In this document: positions 3,470-13,280 of the stretch, in pieces
How positions within the stretch are numbered: position 1 is the first letter of the stretch
Layout: each line of letters begins with the position of its first letter
Assembly: GCA_964521095.1 (NCBI GenBank)
Contig: CAZFPJ010000002.1
Location: forward strand, 85,108 to 149,107
Length of the DNA stretch: 64,000 nucleotides
Direction: 5' to 3'
Source: an uncultured Candidatus Saccharibacteria bacterium
GTDB taxonomy: Bacteria > Patescibacteriota > Saccharimonadia > Saccharimonadales > 2-12-FULL-41-12
Program-made: the position numbers and the translations under genes
The notes under the pieces: model-generated
What the model was told of the DNA's origin: nothing
Seen by the model: the letters and a program-made list of their open reading frames with translations, nothing else
Databases searched by the model: none

Positions 3470-3865
3470 CTAAGAGTCTTTATAGTGTTCTTGGTATCCA
3501 CCCGGTGGTTCGTCTGCCAGTAGTTTGCCTCTGCCACTAAGGCGTCGTCTATCGGGCTTTTTTCTTGGTTTACGATTTTCTGAGTAGTTAGGTTGGGGAG
3601 GGAATACTTCGTAAACCAAGTGCTCGCCATCGGGGCCAATTAAGTCGCTTTCTTCTGTCCAGGAGATTGGTTCATCAGATATCTCTAGGGCAGAGGCTCC
3701 TATCTGCTTGCGTATTTGGCTAGGACTAAGCCTTCCTTGTGCGTCAAGTCTATCGTATTCGGCAGATTGTTCTGGCGTCAGGTCATCTATATTTGCAGGA
3801 TGCACTACTCCATCGGGATTAAATAGTGGCTCTTGTTCTGGATGTAGATTTGAGGACTTGCTCAT
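3470..3865 (-). CDS. hypothetical protein
   Basis: 131-aa ORF with no recognisable motifs. The promoter TTTACT-17-TATACT ends 6 nt before the ATG, so the mRNA may be leaderless. Confidence 0.55.
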   Translation of the reverse strand: MSKSSNLHPEQEPLFNPDGVVHPANIDDLTPEQSAEYDRLDAQGRLSPSQIRKQIGASALEISDEPISWTEESDLIGPDGEHLVYEVFPPQPNYSENRKPRKKPDRRRLSGRGKLLADEPPGGYQEHYKDS

Positions 3866-4387: not shown

Positions 4388-5680
4388 TTAGCCTCGTTGC
4401 AGGGCATCGATAGGGTCTATGCGTGAGGCGCGTCGAGCAGGGAAGAAAGATACTGCTATGCCAACGGCAATCATGAATAAGATCATGCTACCGATGAGCC
4501 AAGCTGGGGTCGAGAATAAGTCGAAAGATTGAGTAACCCCCCTACTCCGGGCAGATTGATTCATCAGTAGGTTTAGTATGTTGCCATTAATGATGGCCAA
4601 GATTATCCCAACTACTGCGCCGGCTATAGACAGCAAGATTGCCTCTAAGATGAAGAGCTTCCTTATGTCGCGGTTTCTGCCCCCGAGAGCCATCATCAGG
4701 CCGATTTCTTTTGTGCGCTCTAACAGAGATATGGTTAGCGTGTTAAACATGCCCAAAACTGAGACTACCATGCCAATGCTACCAAATCCGACTAATATGA
4801 TGGTAAAGATTTTGAAAATCTGGTTAATCTGGGCCAGCGTGTCTATGGGGGAGTCTGTCTGGTAGCCTAGGCTCTCTACTTGTTTACGAATACTCTGTAC
4901 ATTGGTTGTGTCATCGGCAACCACTTTGATTTGAGAGTAGTATTTGACGCCAGCTACTTGCAATAGTCCGGCGGGCATAAAAATCTCGCCACCACTTCCG
5001 GAGTCTATTACCCCAACGATAGTAAGTTCTTTTTTGAGACTATCTTGCCCGCTAGGTAGGCCTTTGAGTGGTATTTTTACCGTAATTTTTTTGTCGATTG
5101 CTTTATTAGCGTCGTTGATACCTATAGAACTCAATAAGGATTTGTTAACCACAATTACATCGGAGTCTTGGTTGGTCAGTAATCGCCCAGATGACAGCAG
5201 AAGGTTGCTAAGGTCTTGATAGTTTTTGTCTACAGCGTAGACGACAGTGTCGGACTCGCTATTTTGGTAGCTGATACTACCCGGATAAGAATAGGATTTG
5301 CCCACTCGTTCTACATGGGCTAGGCCATTTAGCTTATTGGCTAGGCTTTCGTCCAGGTTTAGGATACGGGAATTAGGAGTTCTGATATCGATTGATTTTA
5401 TAGAGCGGTCTCCGATAACTTGCCTGGTAACTAAGTCGCGCAGGCCAAGCCCAAACGAAAATAAGAAAAAGATGGCTCCGATGCCAATAATGATGCCAAA
5501 GAGCGTTAAGAATGTCCGGAGTTTTTTGTTTACAAGATTACGCCAGGCAATGTCTAGGAGTATAAAAAACGAAATTGATTTGTGGTTTTTGTTAAGTCCA
5601 AAAATTTTAACAAAAAAAGGCAACAGAACTTCCTTCGTTTTGTGAGTATATTTTTTGATAGGATTAATAATATTATTCAT
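4388..5680 (-). CDS. ABC transporter permease, MacB/FtsX family
   Basis: 430 aa: N-terminal TM, ~230-aa extracytoplasmic domain, C-terminal 3-TM FtsX-type domain. It overlaps the upstream ATPase gene by 4 nt. Confidence 0.85.
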   Translation of the reverse strand: MNNIINPIKKYTHKTKEVLLPFFVKIFGLNKNHKSISFFILLDIAWRNLVNKKLRTFLTLFGIIIGIGAIFFLFSFGLGLRDLVTRQVIGDRSIKSIDIRTPNSRILNLDESLANKLNGLAHVERVGKSYSYPGSISYQNSESDTVVYAVDKNYQDLSNLLLSSGRLLTNQDSDVIVVNKSLLSSIGINDANKAIDKKITVKIPLKGLPSGQDSLKKELTIVGVIDSGSGGEIFMPAGLLQVAGVKYYSQIKVVADDTTNVQSIRKQVESLGYQTDSPIDTLAQINQIFKIFTIILVGFGSIGMVVSVLGMFNTLTISLLERTKEIGLMMALGGRNRDIRKLFILEAILLSIAGAVVGIILAIINGNILNLLMNQSARSRGVTQSFDLFSTPAWLIGSMILFMIAVGIAVSFFPARRASRIDPIDALQRG

Positions 5681-6468
5681 GGCTTGGCTTTCCTGGGGTG
5701 TTTTGAGGTAGAGAATTCGTTTAACCTGGTCTTCATGCTGTCCATCAGTGAGTTTGTGATTTGGGTTATGCTCTCATCTTTGGATGATTCTACGGTGCCA
5801 TCTTGCACGTGCAGTAGATTATCTGCCAGGGGCAAGTACTCCATGTTGTGAGTGACCAGGATGATTGTGCGCAGGGAGTCGCTGTGAGCCTTGCGCAAGA
5901 GATCCATGACTTTATCGCCATTGGTTGTATCCAGACTTCCGGTGGGTTCGTCGGCAATTATAAACAAGGGGTCATTGACTAGTGCTCTAGCAACGGCAAC
6001 TCTTTGTTGCTCGCCTCCAGACATTAGTGTTGGGTATTTTTTGGCGTAACTCTGCATGTCGATTCTTTCTAGCGATATCATGGCCATGTCTTTGGCAAGC
6101 GATTTGTTATAGCCCAAAAAGTATAGGGGCAGAGCAACATTTTCTAAGACATTAAGGCTAGAAACCCAAAAGTTTTGCTGGTAGATTATGCCGATTCGAC
6201 TGGCTCTAAACCGAGCGAGGTCATCTGCTTTTAGTTTGTAGATATCTTGGTCTTTGAAGGTTATGTTGCCTTGCGTAGGCTTTTGAAGTCCGGTGATAAT
6301 GTTTAGAATTGTTGACTTACCAGAACCGCTGGCACCGTAAATAACATTAAACGAGTTATGAGCCATCTCGAAACTAACATTTTTTAGAACATCTATAGTT
6401 TCTTCACCAACCTTAAAACTTTGGCTAATATTGCTGGCTTGTATTAGTGCCTCACCCTGCTTTTGCAT
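5677..6468 (-). CDS. ABC transporter ATP-binding protein (MacB/LolD-like)
   Basis: Walker [10 protein letters not shown], signature [15 protein letters not shown], Walker [12 protein letters not shown]. It starts 2 nt after the stop of the giant gene. Confidence 0.9.
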
Positions 6469-6470
6469 GC

Positions 6471-9400
6471 CTAGAACCCAAACACTTTCTGGAGAGAGTT
6501 AAGGATGATTGTTAGCACACTGTCTGAAGCCCGCCCAATTATGGCAGATTGAGGTTCGCCCTGTCCGACATTGCCAGATTTATCTTTTGATAGTGGCTGA
6601 ATGCTGTAGACCCGTGATGTTGGCAGGTCGGAGACAATAACTATGTGTTCTGTGCCAAGGGCTACATCTTCGCTGGTTTTGTTGTTAAATACAGTTGTGT
6701 TAGATCCTTCGCCATAGGCTACTTGGCTAGAGGATGGTTCGTCGGTCTTCCAGGAGACTACTACTTGTCCACGAGCTTCTGCACCGGTGCCACGGATAGA
6801 TGTTTCGATTTGTACTTCACTAATTTTTGGTGGCCGGGTGTCGAGGGCCGTTTTGAATTGTTGGCGGTCTGATTCGGCTAGGTTGCCACTGCCATCACGA
6901 CTTTGGGCAATCAAGAAATATTCGCTATTATCTTCTAGGCCTCGCAAGATGAGTTTGTGATCGGTGGTTAGTTGAGAATCTTGAACATCGATACCAGCCT
7001 GGCCAACCTTGCCATAAGTTACCGTTGAAGTAGCAGGTACATTTGTAGTCCAGCTGACTTCTTGGGTGCTGGTTGGCTCTCCTGCTATTGGTTGGAATCG
7101 TAGGTCTAGTATCTTTGGTCGAGCAGGGGTGGTGAAGGAGGAAACACTGCCATCGTAAGAGTTGTCTTCTTTATCGTAGGCGACTAGTTTGTAGAAGTAT
7201 TTTGAGCCGTCCTCTAGGCCATCTATGCTAACTTCATAGGTTGACTCATAAGGCGAGGTGTTGATAGATTTTATGCCTCCAAAGCTTTCGCCTTTGCCGT
7301 ATAACACATCAATGCGACTAGCGTTTTTGCTGGTAAATCTAATAGAAGCATTTGCGAGCCCAACCTTTGAGGTGGTGATTTCTTTGAGCGATGGGGCAGG
7401 GGCAGTTTGGAAAGTAAATTCTTGGCTAGTACCTGTGTTGCCATCTTCGTCTGTCCACTTGGCAACATAGTAGTAGGTAGTGCCTGCGCTTAGGTTGTTT
7501 AGGTCTATTTGGTGCGAACTTACTTGGTCAGACGAGGCGATCTCTGAAGAACTATATTTTCCGCTGGCTGTCCCAATAGCTATCTTTGAGTCACTTGATC
7601 GGTCGGTACTCCAGCTGATGGTCGCTTTGCGGGTAGTTATGTTGGATACTTTTGGATCTGCAACCAGGGTTGCTGGAGAGGTGAATTTACCAGTTGGTAT
7701 CTGGTTGACTGTGGTGCTGTTAGACCCACAGTTGTTAGTGCTGTCACAAGCCGTTACTCGATAGTAGTATCTTTGCTGACTTAGGCCGGCGTCTATGTAG
7801 GTAGTGCTAGAGCTACTACCTACAAACGAGAAGCTGACATTGTTTGTAGAGCGGTATACCTTATAGCTAGATATGCCAGCACCGGTATAAGTTGGTGCAT
7901 CCCAAGTTAGAGCTAGGCGCCAGTTGTTGGTGGCCTTAATAGACACATCGACGATATCGGTATTTAGGGGTATACCTGGAGACGGAGTGTTGGCCGTAAA
8001 GTTGACGGACGAATAGCTACTGTAGTTGATGTTGTTGGACTCGTCTTTTGCAACAACATAGAGCGTATTAAGTCCAGGCTGGGTTGCATATGGCCCCGCC
8101 CCTAAACTAGTCGTGCCTCCGCTAGTAAAGGTACAGTTATTGGCGGACGGAAGGATGTTAACGGTGTAGCAATAGGTTATATTGTTGGCGTTACCAACAA
8201 AAGTAGCCGGCTGGTTCCAACTGAAAGAGAACGAGTTGGTGGTGTTAGTAGTTGGATTTGCTGTAACATTTTGCGGTTCGCTTGGGGCTCCAGAAGTATT
8301 GATTTTTATAGCTGCAGTTACATAAGAAGCCGTCACATTACCTGCTTGGTCCCATGTTCTGAAGTAGACGGTATTTACTCCCTCAGTCAGATTAGCGTGA
8401 TCCGGTGTCGTAATAGTTTGGTATGACCCGTCATTAGACAGCAGGTCATTCATGTCACCCGTACCGCTATGACTATCTCCGTACCAAACAGTGTTGCCGA
8501 TTTTATATTGGAGGCCGGCAAGCCCAGAGTTGGGGTCATCAGGTGCTCCACCGCCAGATGTTGGCCAAGTTAGCGTGACATCTTTGGTGTTAATAAACCC
8601 AGATGGCGCAGTAATGTAACTAGGGTTAGTTGGCGGGGTGTTGTCGAAGCGGAAGTGGAACTGAGTTGTGCCAGTAGTTACATTGCCAGCATTATCCATA
8701 GCTTTGATAGTGAGGTAATACGGTGAGTTGCCGGTTGCTAGAGCTGTTTGTATAGTGCCAGCAGTTGCTGTGTCTATGCTGTTAGTCTCTATTAGGAATT
8801 GACATCGTCCGCCATTATCGGCTGGACTGTTCCCCAGAATACCTTTTGTAGTAACCGGGTCGGCGGAGCCATCGGTTCCAAGGTAGAGGCAGTAGCCCTT
8901 TATGCCAGAGTCTGTATCGGTGCCTGCTGTCCAGGAGAAATATGGTGAGCTACCATTGGTCCAAGCATTTTGCGCCAAGCTAGAACCGCCAGACGCCTTG
9001 AGTGCTGTTATGTTGCTAGCGTTTGTGGCTGGCTCTACTAAATCAGAAGTTGAGGCTAGGGTTACGCTGTTTAGGGTTACGCGTTGGTCGCCATTGCTCT
9101 TTAATACAGCCTGCCACTTTATGCCACTAAGGGTGACAGGGAAGGTACTCATATTTGCGTCGGCTACCGATATGGGGTTGGCCTCGGTCGTGTTATTGGA
9201 ATCTGCCCAACTGCTACCATTCCAGAATTTCCAGGTGACCCCGTTATCGGCAGACAGTCGGTAAGTGATGTCGCCACCGTTAGCGGTTTCGTTGGCTGTA
9301 AGGTTATCCCAGTGCCAGACGCCGTTGATACGAACTGGGTTGTTGAGGGTTATGGTTTGGGCAGTTGTGCTGTATGGCTTGCTGTTGAAGCTCGGCCTTG

Positions 9401-12400
9401 CGATGTCACTAATCCGTACCTCGTCTAACTGCCCCTGGAAATATCCGCGTGATTTTCCTTGTTCTCGTCCACCCCAGCTAGCACCGACAAACATGTCTCG
9501 TGAGCTGTCTGGTATAGTTAAAGATTTAGCTTGCGACCCAACTTCGTTGCCATCGATGTACAGTTTCATAGTTGAGCCATTGTAGGTGGCTGCTACATGG
9601 TGCCAGCTAGTGTCAAAACTAGAGGTAGAGGACTGCACGAATCCATTGTCGCCCCAAGACCAGATAGAGTTATCTTCTGAGTTGCCACTAAGCCCGGTAC
9701 CGGCGTATAGTTTGCCTTTATAAGGACTCATTGACCTAACGGCTTCGACATTGCCATCCCAACCGTTATTCATGCTGTCACCACCAATTTGTGTCCAGGT
9801 GGAGCCATCAAACTGCCAAAGCTCTCCATCGCCAGCCGTTGTCCCTAGTCCGGCGTATAGTTTGCCATTGTATACAGCGAGCGAGTGGATATACTCGTAG
9901 GTGCCTGCACCCCAACTATTGTTAACCGATCCTGTACCGCCCCCAATTAGTTCCCAGCTAGAGCCGTCATAAGTCCATATTTCGGCATCCCCTGTACTGT
10001 CGCCAAGTCCTACTGCTAGTTTGTCACCAAAGTTAGTCATAGATCGTACGGTTTCATAGCTTGTATTCCAGCTAGAGCTAACTCCATCGCCACCAACTTT
10101 ATTCCAGGCACTTCCATTCCACCGCCAGACTTCGGCTTCTGTGGCCGAAGTGCCGATGCCGGCATAAAGCTCGCCATTATAAATACCTAGCGACGAAACC
10201 ATCTCGAAGTTGGCTGCCCAGCCATTATTTATGTTGTCACCGCCAATTTTATCCCACTGACTGCCGTCCCAAACCCATACTTCGGCGTCATTGGCCGAAG
10301 TGCCGATGCCGGCATATAATTTACCAGCATAAGACGCCATAGAGTAGACTCCTTCATAGTTGGCTGCCCAGCCATCGTTCATGCTGTCACCACCAATTTG
10401 CGTCCAGGTACTGCCATCCCACTTCCATACTTCGGCGTCATTGGCCGAAATTCCTAGCCCAACATACAGCTCGCCCCCTAGGCTAGCCATAGAGGTTACG
10501 GCTTCGTAAGAAAAAGCCCCCCAGCTATTGTTGACTCCTTGTCCGCCTATCATTTCCCAGTTGCTACCGTTGAATCGCCATACCAGGGCATTGCCTGCCG
10601 TAGCATAGCCGGATCCCGCATATAAATAATCTCCGACCCATTGCATGACCTCTACGCTTTGGAGATTGTAATATCCCCAACTTTTATTTATCCCATTACC
10701 ACCTATCTGTGTCCAGGCGGAGCCATTCCATGTCCACATTCGTCCAGTGCCAGCAGAGTCATAAGTTCCTGCATATACCGTGGAGCCACTACTACTTAAT
10801 GTAAATATTGCATCGCCTTCTGCTGTGTTCCAGCTAGAGTTCGCTCCATCACCTCCAACTTTATGCCAGATACTACCGTCCCATCGCCAGACCTCACCAT
10901 CCCCATCGCTACTGCCGAGACCTACAAATATATCTGTTCCATTGCTGGTGATGGAACTGACATACTCGTAGGTTGTGTTGGCCCAGCTAGAGTTAAGCGT
11001 ATCACCACCAATTTGTGTCCAGGTGGGCGAGCCACCATTGCAACCCGAACAGCGATATACATCGCCATCGCCGGCGCTGTCACCAGTACCTGCATATATA
11101 TAAGTGCCGTCATAGAACAGGCTTCGAACCATTTCGTAGTTAGCAGAAAAACCACTGCCGTTATCGGCAACCTTTGTCCACTGAGTGCCGTTCCATCGCC
11201 AGACCTCGGCTTCGTTAGCGGTAACCCCCAAGCCAACATATAGATTAGTGCCATCATTGGTCATAGAGTAGGCATATTCGTAGTTTGTTCCCCATCCAAG
11301 ATTAATGCTGTCACCACCAATTTTGCTCCAGCTGGAGCCATCCCATTTCCACACCTCGGCGTCGTTAGCACTTGCTCCTAGTCCGGCGTATAGATTTCCC
11401 CCAAAATAATCTAGCGAGTAGACACCCTCGTGTGTGCCAATACCCCAACTCCCTGGCGTATTGGCGTCACCACCAATTTTGCTCCAGCTACTACCATTCC
11501 ATCGCCAGACCTCTGCATCTCCGGCACCAGTACCGAGCCCCACAAAAACATTTGTGCCATCAGTTGCCATGCTTAACACATATTCATGTTCGCCAGACCA
11601 GCTAGAATTTACGCCGTCGCCCCCAATTTTACTCCAGGTGGAGCCACTATATTTGTATACTTCCGCATCTTTTGTGGCTACGCCGGTTCCAGCGTATACA
11701 TCACTACCGACCGTCACAGATGAGGATACGGCGTTTTTGCCATTTAAGCCCCAGCTACCGTTAACATCGTCGCCAGCGGATTTAGTCCAGCCGGTAGCTG
11801 AATTATTGGCAAGCTCGTAAGTTAGCTTGCCTGTTTCATTGTCAAAATACATCTGGTAGTCGCCTTTATCTACTATTGCCTGGCGTTGTTCGTGCGAGCC
11901 AGCTGAGAAGTTGGAGCTAAATTTAGTCCAACCTTCAATTGTATTGTTTTGCGAAAGTGAAAGAGAGGGCGAATCGGGCACAGATATCTTTGAGGTAGTG
12001 CCATTTAGGCCTAGAGCATTATTTAAGTTACCTGTTTGCCAACTCTCGTCTTTAACCGTTCCATCATTGTTGTTGGTGGAGCTGTCATGAACAGTAGTTC
12101 CGCTCGATTCATCTAGGTGAAAGAGGGCTTTGGTGTTAGCATCGTCAGAATAGTTCTGGGCCTTCATGCGCACGCTGTTACCACTGATCTCTAAGCCATC
12201 ATCTAGGCTATATTGGCTAGGGGTAGAAAAGTCCCAGTTGTCAAAAAGGTCAGATGCAGCCAAGACTCTAGATAGAGAGGCAAATAACATTGATCCGATG
12301 ACAATCATGTATACGCCAAATACTGCATAATGCACTCGCTTGTGTTTGTCCCACTCGTGCCAGGTTTTGTATTTAGAGTATTTATTGGACAAATGCAGAT

Positions 12401-12608
12401 GTGGTTTGTGGGCCAAGTAGTGATGCCAGTATTTGTACCATCGCTTAAGCATTATAGAGGTCCTACGCAAGGAGTAACGAGAAATTTTACTACCGTATAT
12501 CGTTACCCAAACGGTAAATTGAATAGCCAAACGAATAAATATCGCAGAATATTTTAGCAATAATCCCCACGATTTTTGAGCTACTAGTAAAAATTTTTGT
12601 CTCGACAT
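6471..12608 (-). CDS. giant membrane-anchored surface protein (LamG/ConA-like domain with nested beta-propeller repeats, then FN3/Ig-like domains)
   Basis: 2045-aa ORF. It has a basic W/H/K/Y-rich N-tail and a TM segment at about aa 93-117. LamG_3-like sequence is split into aa ~160-270 and ~1000-1072. About 14 repeats of ~50 aa follow the pattern AEVWxWxGSxWxxIGGDxxNxxW. The C-terminal half contains multiple FN3-like modules. The true start may be an internal Met (aa 53). Confidence 0.85.
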   Translation of the reverse strand: MSRQKFLLVAQKSWGLLLKYSAIFIRLAIQFTVWVTIYGSKISRYSLRRTSIMLKRWYKYWHHYLAHKPHLHLSNKYSKYKTWHEWDKHKRVHYAVFGVYMIVIGSMLFASLSRVLAASDLFDNWDFSTPSQYSLDDGLEISGNSVRMKAQNYSDDANTKALFHLDESSGTTVHDSSTNNNDGTVKDESWQTGNLNNALGLNGTTSKISVPDSPSLSLSQNNTIEGWTKFSSNFSAGSHEQRQAIVDKGDYQMYFDNETGKLTYELANNSATGWTKSAGDDVNGSWGLNGKNAVSSSVTVGSDVYAGTGVATKDAEVYKYSGSTWSKIGGDGVNSSWSGEHEYVLSMATDGTNVFVGLGTGAGDAEVWRWNGSSWSKIGGDANTPGSWGIGTHEGVYSLDYFGGNLYAGLGASANDAEVWKWDGSSWSKIGGDSINLGWGTNYEYAYSMTNDGTNLYVGLGVTANEAEVWRWNGTQWTKVADNGSGFSANYEMVRSLFYDGTYIYAGTGDSAGDGDVYRCSGCNGGSPTWTQIGGDTLNSSWANTTYEYVSSITSNGTDIFVGLGSSDGDGEVWRWDGSIWHKVGGDGANSSWNTAEGDAIFTLSSSGSTVYAGTYDSAGTGRMWTWNGSAWTQIGGNGINKSWGYYNLQSVEVMQWVGDYLYAGSGYATAGNALVWRFNGSNWEMIGGQGVNNSWGAFSYEAVTSMASLGGELYVGLGISANDAEVWKWDGSTWTQIGGDSMNDGWAANYEGVYSMASYAGKLYAGIGTSANDAEVWVWDGSQWDKIGGDNINNGWAANFEMVSSLGIYNGELYAGIGTSATEAEVWRWNGSAWNKVGGDGVSSSWNTSYETVRSMTNFGDKLAVGLGDSTGDAEIWTYDGSSWELIGGGTGSVNNSWGAGTYEYIHSLAVYNGKLYAGLGTTAGDGELWQFDGSTWTQIGGDSMNNGWDGNVEAVRSMSPYKGKLYAGTGLSGNSEDNSIWSWGDNGFVQSSTSSFDTSWHHVAATYNGSTMKLYIDGNEVGSQAKSLTIPDSSRDMFVGASWGGREQGKSRGYFQGQLDEVRISDIARPSFNSKPYSTTAQTITLNNPVRINGVWHWDNLTANETANGGDITYRLSADNGVTWKFWNGSSWADSNNTTEANPISVADANMSTFPVTLSGIKWQAVLKSNGDQRVTLNSVTLASTSDLVEPATNASNITALKASGGSSLAQNAWTNGSSPYFSWTAGTDTDSGIKGYCLYLGTDGSADPVTTKGILGNSPADNGGRCQFLIETNSIDTATAGTIQTALATGNSPYYLTIKAMDNAGNVTTGTTQFHFRFDNTPPTNPSYITAPSGFINTKDVTLTWPTSGGGAPDDPNSGLAGLQYKIGNTVWYGDSHSGTGDMNDLLSNDGSYQTITTPDHANLTEGVNTVYFRTWDQAGNVTASYVTAAIKINTSGAPSEPQNVTANPTTNTTNSFSFSWNQPATFVGNANNITYCYTVNILPSANNCTFTSGGTTSLGAGPYATQPGLNTLYVVAKDESNNINYSSYSSVNFTANTPSPGIPLNTDIVDVSIKATNNWRLALTWDAPTYTGAGISSYKVYRSTNNVSFSFVGSSSSTTYIDAGLSQQRYYYRVTACDSTNNCGSNSTTVNQIPTGKFTSPATLVADPKVSNITTRKATISWSTDRSSDSKIAIGTASGKYSSSEIASSDQVSSHQIDLNNLSAGTTYYYVAKWTDEDGNTGTSQEFTFQTAPAPSLKEITTSKVGLANASIRFTSKNASRIDVLYGKGESFGGIKSINTSPYESTYEVSIDGLEDGSKYFYKLVAYDKEDNSYDGSVSSFTTPARPKILDLRFQPIAGEPTSTQEVSWTTNVPATSTVTYGKVGQAGIDVQDSQLTTDHKLILRGLEDNSEYFLIAQSRDGSGNLAESDRQQFKTALDTRPPKISEVQIETSIRGTGAEARGQVVVSWKTDEPSSSQVAYGEGSNTTVFNNKTSEDVALGTEHIVIVSDLPTSRVYSIQPLSKDKSGNVGQGEPQSAIIGRASDSVLTIILNSLQKVFGF
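9639..11795 (-). repeat. coding tandem repeats (~150-nt period, ~14 units) inside the giant gene
   Basis: Recurrent W-x-W-x-G-S-x-W..IGGD blades at aa 318, 368, 420, 470, 518, 574, 625, 677, 728, 778, 828, 878, 931 and 983. Some blades share DNA strings, e.g. GGCCGAAGTGCCGATGCCGGCATA at ~10143 and ~10293. Confidence 0.8.
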
Positions 12609-12725: not shown

Positions 12726-13280
12726 CTAGGTTCGTCGAAGGATGTACTTACTGGTAGCGACAACCGCAATCTCGTTTATAGCAAAGATTTCTCGTCTTAT
12801 TTTTTCAGAGACAGGGTCAACTGTTAGCATAGTTGTATCATGCTTTTGATAGACTTTCCCGCCAGCTTGACTGATCTCTACCAGATCTAAGCCCAGTGGT
12901 CTGGCATATGGATAAAAATCTCCCTGGTTGCTCATAATACTTATTCCTCGTAGCTCTTCATCTCTGTTTTCTTGTAACCTAGAGTTGGTTTCTAGGGATA
13001 GTTTGATCAGGCTAACGATTAGTGCCGAGCCCTGTACGGCTATTCTTGGCTCGGGTCCCTTGCGAGGGTCATAGTAAAAGAGATCTTGATTTTCGCTAGT
13101 AATTTTTAGCTTTAACGGATCTGCGCCCGACGAAGGGTCAAGCCTATTTCGGTTATCAAGTAGGCCATATTCTTCAGTTGGCTCTGGCTCGAGTTGTCCA
13201 ACTAGCTCCAAAGCGAAGTTTTTTGAGGTAATCTTGTCTAGGTTGGCGGATGGTGGCCGATGAACCTCTCTGTGCTCCAT
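12726..13280 (-). CDS. hypothetical protein
   Basis: 184-aa ORF with no recognisable motif. Confidence 0.5.
   Translation of the reverse strand: MEHREVHRPPSANLDKITSKNFALELVGQLEPEPTEEYGLLDNRNRLDPSSGADPLKLKITSENQDLFYYDPRKGPEPRIAVQGSALIVSLIKLSLETNSRLQENRDEELRGISIMSNQGDFYPYARPLGLDLVEISQAGGKVYQKHDTTMLTVDPVSEKIRREIFAINEIAVVATSKYILRRT

Follow-up and report, generated by a model that had tools for sequence, protein, structure and literature searches.

A LamG domain predicted to nest two seven-bladed propellers in a giant putative surface protein of Saccharibacteria

Introduction

A discontinuous parent domain that houses a continuous domain in one of its loops, with chain entry and exit adjacent, has well-known precedents. 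In prolyl oligopeptidase, the hydrolase domain is interrupted by a propeller that separates its N-terminal part from its C-terminal part; in calnexin and calreticulin, the P-domain arm is inserted in a ConA-like lectin domain; and in Vibrio cholerae neuraminidase and in the integrin alpha chain with its I-domain, a lectin domain or an I-domain is inserted into a propeller. Here we describe a gene for a 2045-amino-acid (aa) protein, termed the giant protein, in a 64,000-nucleotide (nt) stretch of DNA from an uncultured Candidatus Saccharibacteria bacterium (GenBank assembly GCA_964521095.1, contig CAZFPJ010000002.1, positions 85,108 to 149,107), referred to as the window. The giant protein appears to follow the same principle, except that a LamG jelly roll serves as the parent and two propellers make up the insert. 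We know of no described case of a propeller pair in a LamG jelly roll. An earlier note on this DNA had called the architecture unusual, and we found no description of the nested architecture or of the protein family in the searchable literature.

Chains with two consecutive seven-bladed rings are also familiar, including the GH74 enzyme 5jwz, Elp2, Utp21, PorZ (5m11) and the BT4663 sensor (4a2l). The giant protein shares this arrangement but differs from these proteins in sequence (9-16% identity) and in relative ring orientation (query-normalised TM-score 0.25-0.39), and their propeller pair is never nested in another domain. Its blades resemble those of Kelch, Rax2-C (PF12768) and DUF5122 (PF17164) propellers, being four-stranded and about 50 aa long, with a Gly doublet, a conserved Trp, seven blades per ring and velcro closure. 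In contrast to these, the blades in the window fail the Pfam models and carry a long conserved inter-blade loop (GGD..N..W...YE). What is new here is a discontinuous LamG domain that hosts two propellers, is strictly conserved and is tied to a MacB-type transporter; the component folds are familiar.

Results

A single LamG domain is split by a 717-residue insert

The giant protein contains, in order, an N-terminal tail, a transmembrane (TM) segment, the LamG domain with two propellers inside it, a beta-domain and an FN3-like array (Table 1). The earlier note had located the two halves of a LamG_3-type domain at about aa 160-270 and aa 1000-1072, and aa 160-1072 correspond exactly to nt 9393-12131 of the window. 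In the Pfam search, the native protein matched Laminin_G_3 (PF13385) with 60.8 bits, above the gathering threshold (cutoff 27.6), and the contiguous stretch (aa 979-1071) covered only profile positions 55-145 of 151, the C-terminal two-thirds of the domain. The C-terminal fragment by itself scored 68.7 bits (profile 56-145), and the N-terminal fragment by itself had no Pfam match. When aa 140-272 were joined to aa 991-1085, with aa 273-990 taken out, a single Laminin_G_3 stretch was obtained (profile 1-145 of 151; 87.4 bits). Once spliced to the C-terminal half, the N-terminal half added 18.7 bits and extended the match to profile position 1. The spliced sequence also aligned end-to-end with the solved LamG-like structure 4qvs_A (18-218 against 3-215 of 227; E 4e-6), with the splice point in a loop.

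We built family profiles of the spliced domain, the N-half and the C-half from 67 orthologs and compared them by hhalign with an alignment of intact LamG domains (those of P0054, P0084-86, P0096, P0107 and P0119). The spliced family matched over 202 aligned columns, spanning 1-214 of 214 (probability 100%, E 2e-40), and the alignment was unbroken apart from a one-residue gap at the splice. The N-half family matched template columns 12-122 (99.3%, E 1e-20) and the C-half family columns 139-209 (99.2%, E 2e-19), indicating that the two pieces are complementary, non-overlapping parts of one LamG domain. By domain mapping, 717 residues separate the two parts, compared with 12-25 in intact relatives. 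The interruption lies at a hairpin near Pfam profile position 55/56, between the strands LTYEL and GFVQ, and the 717 residues stand in place of a tight turn of about 1-2 residues in the intact relatives. With the insert removed, the domain is thus like LamG (PF13385, 4qvs_A) in giving a full-length, above-threshold profile match; it differs in being discontinuous, its hairpin turn replaced by two propellers. The positions of both halves given in the earlier note were recovered with slightly wider borders, and its central proposal, that the array is inserted inside one LamG domain, agreed with the full-length spliced profile and with the split being kept in 67 complete orthologs. The profile search that it had suggested as a check, with partial domains that do not complement each other as the adverse outcome, returned complementary halves.

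We considered whether two unrelated partial domains could instead flank the array, leaving only a truncated C-terminal LamG remnant, or whether the layout could be an assembly or fusion artefact. The N-terminal fragment, lacking a Pfam match of its own, would suit this explanation. However, its family profile finds LamG columns complementary to those of the C-half, and the spliced profile spans the full domain without a break. Moreover, an 87-aa C-half of six strands cannot stand alone as a jelly roll, and the same layout recurs across 67 genomes that were assembled independently, as well as with inserts of 7, 8 and 14 blades. An origin from unrelated pieces or from an artefact is therefore scarcely credible.

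The insert is an array of 14 Kelch-like blades

The insert comprises 14 Kelch-like blades of about 50 aa each. Thirteen complete units of the pattern (A/G)(E/D)VWxW...IGGD..N..W start at aa 315, 365, 417, 467, 515, 571, 622, 674, 725, 775, 825, 875 and 928. The 14th unit is split: its W..(I/S)(G/A)GD..N..W part (aa 272-314) follows the LamG N-half, and its xIWSW strand (aa 980-988) precedes the C-half. A hidden Markov model (HMM) of the blade gave 14 matches in the giant protein. In the AlphaFold2 (AF2) model, DSSP assigned 56 strands to the insert (14 x 4), 9 to the LamG N-half and 6 to the C-half, and the strands of the array followed the pattern D / A-B-C-D x 13 / A-B-C. The 14 tandem repeats reported in the earlier note were therefore all present, one of them divided between the two ends of the array.

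Within a blade, strand A (V.SM..Y) is followed by a turn of 2-4 residues, strand B (LYAGLG), a loop of 6-9 residues, strand C (EVW.W), a turn of 4 residues and strand D (W..IG), after which a conserved loop of 13-16 residues (GD..N..W...YE) leads into the next blade. The first element of the array is a single D strand and the last is an A-B-C set, suggesting velcro closure. The linkers are short, with 7 residues from LTYEL to the first D strand, 4 between the rings, and 3 from the last C strand (IWSW) to GFVQ.

No Pfam family, Kelch included, matched aa 270-1000 at E <= 10, and neither Rax2 (PF12768) nor DUF5122 (PF17164) had a match in the giant protein. Searches of PDB sequences with the array and with the family profile found no relative (best E 0.35). 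By phmmer, the array was related to Rax2-, DUF5122- and Kelch-bearing proteins (E 1e-14 to 1e-21; 25-31% identity), and Kelch models were touched weakly, by the distant relatives P0044 and P0088 only. Judged from sequence, the tie to Rax2-C/DUF5122 propellers is one of distant homology, not of membership.

The blades are predicted to form two rings around one hub

The AF2 model of aa 140-1085, computed from a 33-sequence alignment, had a mean predicted local distance difference test score (pLDDT) of 88.7 and a predicted TM-score (pTM) of 0.88, with both LamG halves at pLDDT 81-95. The top Foldseek matches in the PDB were tandem seven-bladed double propellers, namely GH74 5jwz (E 2e-16), Elp2, Utp21, PorZ and BT4663, and Utp21 reached a TM-score of 0.52 when normalised by target length. 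Against viral models, single propellers of about 350 residues superposed at 4.1-4.7 A over 340-380 columns.

The GH74 match raises the question of catalysis. Glycoside hydrolases (GHs) often contain LamG/ConA-like folds, and often propellers, and the top PDB fold match (5jwz_A, E 2e-16) is a xyloglucanase made of two seven-bladed propellers. The double propeller might accordingly be an enzyme with a GH74-like or sialidase-like cleft between the rings, the LamG domain serving as an accessory carbohydrate-binding scaffold. Yet 5jwz shares just 16% identity with the giant protein at TM-scores of 0.29 (query length) and 0.37 (target length), and matches to the non-enzymes Elp2, Utp21 and EML-like proteins were equally good. 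Pfam GH and BNR families gave no match at E <= 10, there was no PDB sequence relative, and the conserved residues are the structural W/G/D/N motif of every blade, not a unique acidic pair. We regard a catalytic role as improbable.

The partition of the array into two rings was supported by an ortholog, P0019 (1602 aa; L001 6001-10809), which lacks exactly aa 273-630 and has seven blades only. Outside the insert, P0019 is collinear with the giant protein (57% identity over 1054 aa). In BLASTP, its propeller (aa 185-548) aligned end-to-end with aa 631-988 (54% identity, 363 columns, 355 bits) and more poorly with aa 272-630 (40% identity, 209 bits). The motif NKSWG..L.SVEVMQ of blade 7, the first blade of propeller 2, is conserved across the family and present in P0019. 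Since P0019 differs by exactly one seven-blade unit, the ring boundary is placed at aa 630/631 and each ring appears to be self-closing. The two seven-bladed propellers suggested in the earlier note are thus in keeping both with the double-propeller fold matches and with this natural single-ring form.

We compared the 14 blade positions, profile against profile, across 67 species. Blades 0, 6, 7 and 13, which border the junctions, were the most divergent. The i to i+7 register that would mark a recent whole-propeller duplication was not found, and blades clustered within each ring, which argues against recent duplication of a whole ring.

We propose that the hairpin of the LamG jelly roll would be opened to admit the 717 residues as two tandem seven-bladed propellers. 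Each ring would be velcro-closed, with its first strand (W..IGG, outermost) completing the blade made by the last three strands. Because of this closure, the chain would enter and leave each ring at the same blade, and, given linkers of 7, 4 and 3 residues, both LamG halves and both closure blades would meet at one hub, where the jelly roll could re-form. We strongly infer that the two LamG halves physically reassemble; the geometry of the hub is likewise a prediction. The outcome would be a rigid three-domain head bearing 14 repeated Trp/Asp/Asn-rich loops. That one LamG domain nests two seven-bladed propellers is, in our assessment, highly probable.

The architecture is widespread and blade number is fixed

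In a protein search, the closest relative came from 'Candidatus Saccharibacteria bacterium CPR2' (71% identity) and was annotated only as a LamG domain-containing protein; in databases, the family goes by the names 'LamG domain-containing' or 'hypothetical' only. Many relatives were also found in other lineages of the candidate phyla radiation (CPR), namely WWE3, Moranbacteria, Kaiserbacteria and Berkelbacteria. At the CPR2 locus (L002 8001-14011), the gene was called as two open reading frames (ORFs) of 1166 and 837 aa with a 4-nt overlap; either a frameshift or stop is responsible, or the gene is truly divided immediately past the LamG C-half region.

When a single genome for each GTDB species was scanned with an N-half/first-blade profile, at least 128 species-level genomes matched, and 80 of these loci were fetched. 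Nearly all of these loci belonged to Saccharibacteria/Saccharimonadia, with a few from WWE3, Nomurabacteria, Moranbacteria and Paceibacterota. The N-half, blades and C-half occurred in this order in 67/67 complete genes, whose products totalled about 1950-2150 aa. Consensus identity was about equal in the LamG halves (0.70 and 0.66) and the rings (0.66 and 0.68). Proteins bearing numerous LamG domains in tandem dominated the 31,069 matches of an exhaustive representative search with the N-half/first-blade profile; members of the family were dispersed among them, and no clean family size was obtained.

The blade count was 14 in most of the 67 complete genes and 13 in a few, where one blade probably fell below the HMM threshold. 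The only departures were P0019 with seven blades and P0014 with eight; in the protein sequence of the eight-blade insert of P0014, several neighbouring blades are near-identical.

The earlier note had read the array as containing blades of near-identical DNA, which would allow recombinational expansion or contraction. The DNA did not bear this out. Identity between whole blades was 52-71% at the DNA level and 30-64% at the protein level, the most similar local segment reached 79% over 109 nt (10208-10316 against 10358-10466), the longest exact word common to blades was 25 nt, and Tandem Repeats Finder (TRF) reported one 1.9-copy array with 74% matches. A recombination-prone repeat of variable copy number, serving surface variation, could draw on the tandem arrangement with its common 25-nt words and on the rare relatives with seven or eight blades. 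Against it, essentially all complete orthologs, spanning 48-77% identity, have 14 blades, identity between blades is 30-64% at the protein level and does not exceed 71% at the DNA level, and every blade position has its own consensus that is conserved across species. We therefore consider copy-number variation very improbable; blade number is fixed, not variable, among the orthologs, and the suggested expansion and contraction is not reflected in the comparison of relatives.

The head lies next to a membrane anchor and has relatives on phage tail and pilin-like proteins

We aligned 55 orthologs around the N-terminus. The His/Lys-rich tail (aa about 60-91) that precedes the TM segment is conserved, and a stretch of about 40 residues after the segment is highly conserved and runs into the LamG domain. 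The conserved basic tail and the single TM segment point to a surface location of the giant protein. This cytoplasmic tail shows the motif HH..A..PH.HL.NK...Y..WH.W..H..VH at aa about 53-91 (window 12336-12450, minus strand). The LamG/propeller head sits between the membrane anchor and the Ig (immunoglobulin)/FN3-like array of about 970 aa, and the short spacing of about 40 residues to the TM segment places it near the membrane. A further conserved motif, ...VLT.ILN.LQKVFG(F/L), closes the C-terminus (window 6474-6520, minus strand), where the giant protein ends in ...LNSLQKVFGF.

The guanine-plus-cytosine (GC) content is 0.49-0.50 at window 8001-12000, compared with about 0.42-0.45 in the flanks, and the GC skew falls to -0.20 at 10001-12000. 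The rise fits the coding of Gly/Trp/Ala/Asp-rich blades on the minus strand rather than a foreign origin. The plus-strand ORFs at 8902-9264, 10863-11243 and 11434-11820 are probably antisense artefacts.

The closest relatives of the propellers outside LamG proteins (40-48% identity over seven blades) were the C-terminal ends of Phage-tail_3 + Rcc01698_C proteins (P0056-P0075). On one IMG/VR contig (L086 4483-7020), the C-terminal end of a tail protein of phrog_4271 is a propeller with 45% identity to aa 631-988, and a tail fibre gene comes next. These tail host-specificity proteins and the giant protein have seven-blade propellers from one sequence family, but in the tail proteins the propeller is terminal, not nested in LamG, and the remainder of the protein is unrelated.

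Pilin-like relatives were also identified. P0082 (L084 766-2853) and P0088 (L083 740-4069) have a prepilin N-terminus (N_methyl motif), and their LamG domain is interrupted at the same hairpin as in the giant protein (GKLEFDV... / ...GFIKSQ). Propellers of other blade subtypes form these inserts, with about 7 blades in P0082 and about 14 blades of 42 aa in P0088, so that the nesting recurs in another surface-appendage setting. These proteins have the module in common with the giant protein but belong to a different family; Pfam found no prepilin methylation motif (PF07963, N_methyl) in the giant protein, which has the long basic tail and TM segment instead. Genes around those of the pilin-like relatives gave no useful clue.

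Because phage tail tips and pilus adhesins bind, and because the head would carry 14 Trp/Asp/Asn-rich loops, a multivalent ligand-binding head is the most economical reading. On this comparative evidence, we put at about even the chance that the head is a multivalent ligand-binding module, most likely for glycans or the cell envelope, that is used in host-cell contact.

Genes for a MacB-type ABC transporter lie directly downstream

An ATPase gene starts 2 nt past the stop codon of the giant gene and is overlapped by 4 nt by a MacB-type permease gene (Table 1). We examined the 63 related loci (Saccharibacteria and allied CPR lineages) that had enough downstream sequence, and found the ATPase in 59/63 and the permease in 61/63. 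Two exceptions to the conserved gene order both came from the same CPR2 genome in which the giant gene is split. The three-gene order was also present at the P0019 and P0001 loci. In some lineages, an insertion of about 200 aa in the periplasmic domain brings the MacB-type permease to about 700-770 aa (L005, L008, L012, L022, L045, L049, L058, L063, L064, L073, L076 and L078); no propeller blades were found in this insertion. The small flanking ORFs at 12726-13280, 3470-3865, 2449-2874 and 1997-2437, all on the minus strand, had no Pfam match.

One protein, P0044 (L085 6001-8283), was examined as a natural propeller + FtsX fusion and rejected, since one of its blades breaks off mid-strand and the FtsX domain follows at once. 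A deletion or an assembly chimera most likely joined the giant gene to the downstream permease.

The locus resembles MacB-type systems (MacAB, FtsEX, LolCDE) in having a separate ATPase, a MacB_PCD/FtsX permease and a putative upstream partner with one N-terminal TM helix. It differs in that this putative partner, a LamG/propeller/FN3 protein of 2045 aa, is neither a membrane-fusion protein nor a hydrolase activator. By its gene position, the head would be co-expressed with the MacB-type ABC transporter, to which it may be coupled.

The gene order bears on a further explanation, in which the giant protein is an extracytoplasmic, adaptor-like partner of the transporter. Its N-terminal tail and TM helix would dock on the FtsX-type permease, the head would stand beside the MacB periplasmic domain, and ATP-driven mechanotransmission on or through the head would release, remodel or load a ligand, binding being just part of the role. 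Consistent with this, the three genes abut or overlap in the window and keep their order in 59-61 of 63 related loci, and the giant gene stands where MacAB-type operons have the gene for the membrane-fusion/adaptor protein. Like such adaptors, the giant protein has one N-terminal TM helix, here after a conserved cytoplasmic tail, and the head (aa 155-1075) is membrane-proximal, following the helix at aa about 92-116. However, synteny alone is no proof of physical interaction, Pfam found no HlyD/MFP (membrane-fusion protein)-like domain in the giant protein, and P0044, the sole fusion of propeller and FtsX encountered, has the appearance of a deletion or assembly chimera. We consider such a partnership unlikely.

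Table 1. Positions of the giant gene, its protein parts and the adjoining transporter genes in the window
Feature	Window coordinates	Strand	Evidence
Giant surface-protein gene, 2045 aa	6471..12608	-	ORF list; Pfam Laminin_G_3, fn3, Pur_ac_phosph_N
Single hydrophobic TM / signal-anchor segment, aa about 92-116	12261..12335	-	Kyte-Doolittle scan and 55-ortholog alignment
LamG N-terminal half, aa 155-272, final strand LTYEL (aa 262-266)	11793..12146	-	hhalign, splice gain in Pfam, AF2 pLDDT 81-95
Propeller 1, aa 273-630, seven Kelch-like four-stranded blades	10719..11792	-	Blade HMM, AF2 strands, absent from ortholog P0019
Propeller 2, aa 631-988, seven blades	9645..10718	-	Collinear with sole propeller of P0019
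LamG C-terminal half, aa 989-1075, opens with strand GFVQ	9384..9644	-	Pfam, hhalign, AF2 strands
C-terminal part of about 970 aa: beta-rich domain, then FN3 / purple-acid-phosphatase-N-like (Ig-like) array	6474..9383	-	Pfam fn3 and Pur_ac_phosph_N (4 stretches)
ABC transporter ATPase gene	5677..6468	-	Pfam ABC_tran E 2e-30
MacB-type permease gene	4388..5680	-	Pfam MacB_PCD E 3e-24, FtsX E 3e-19

Discussion

In this study, we assign the giant protein a nested LamG/double-propeller head, carried by an anchored Saccharibacteria surface protein and serving a ligand-binding role. Taken as a whole, this statement is probable. Several points weigh against it. The single-sequence AF2 prediction of the spliced LamG domain (aa 140-272 + 991-1085) gave a pLDDT of 45 and was unusable, and the contact between the two halves and the geometry of the two rings rest on profile continuity, confidence scores, the identity of the fold matches and the ortholog comparison. 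No binding site is transferable, since the propeller has neither a Pfam match nor a PDB sequence relative. In addition, about 40 residues separate the head from the membrane anchor; it is not at the distal tip, where the tip of an adhesin would first be expected.

A bolder proposal is that the head is the working end of an unrecognised, Saccharibacteria-wide three-gene machine, in which the MacB-type transporter would act by ATP-driven mechanotransmission on its membrane-anchored partner of 2000 aa and so control attachment to the host surface or the extraction of material from it. The nested hub would then act as a rigid lever or ligand clamp beside the periplasmic domain of the transporter. 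This proposal is doubtful and is offered as speculation.

The giant protein is a case of extreme domain nesting, in which 717 residues forming two closed rings pass through one hairpin of a 200-residue jelly roll by way of linkers of 3-7 residues. It offers a test case for folding order, for the tolerance of domain insertion and for annotation pipelines, which currently call a partial LamG domain and leave 700 residues unannotated. Saccharibacteria are obligate epibionts whose host-recognition molecules are mostly uncharacterised, and the giant protein is among their largest conserved surface proteins. Its pairing with a MacB-type transporter, the occurrence of its blade family on receptor-binding phage tail proteins and that of its module on pilin-like proteins make it a genetically testable candidate for host contact in Saccharibacteria.

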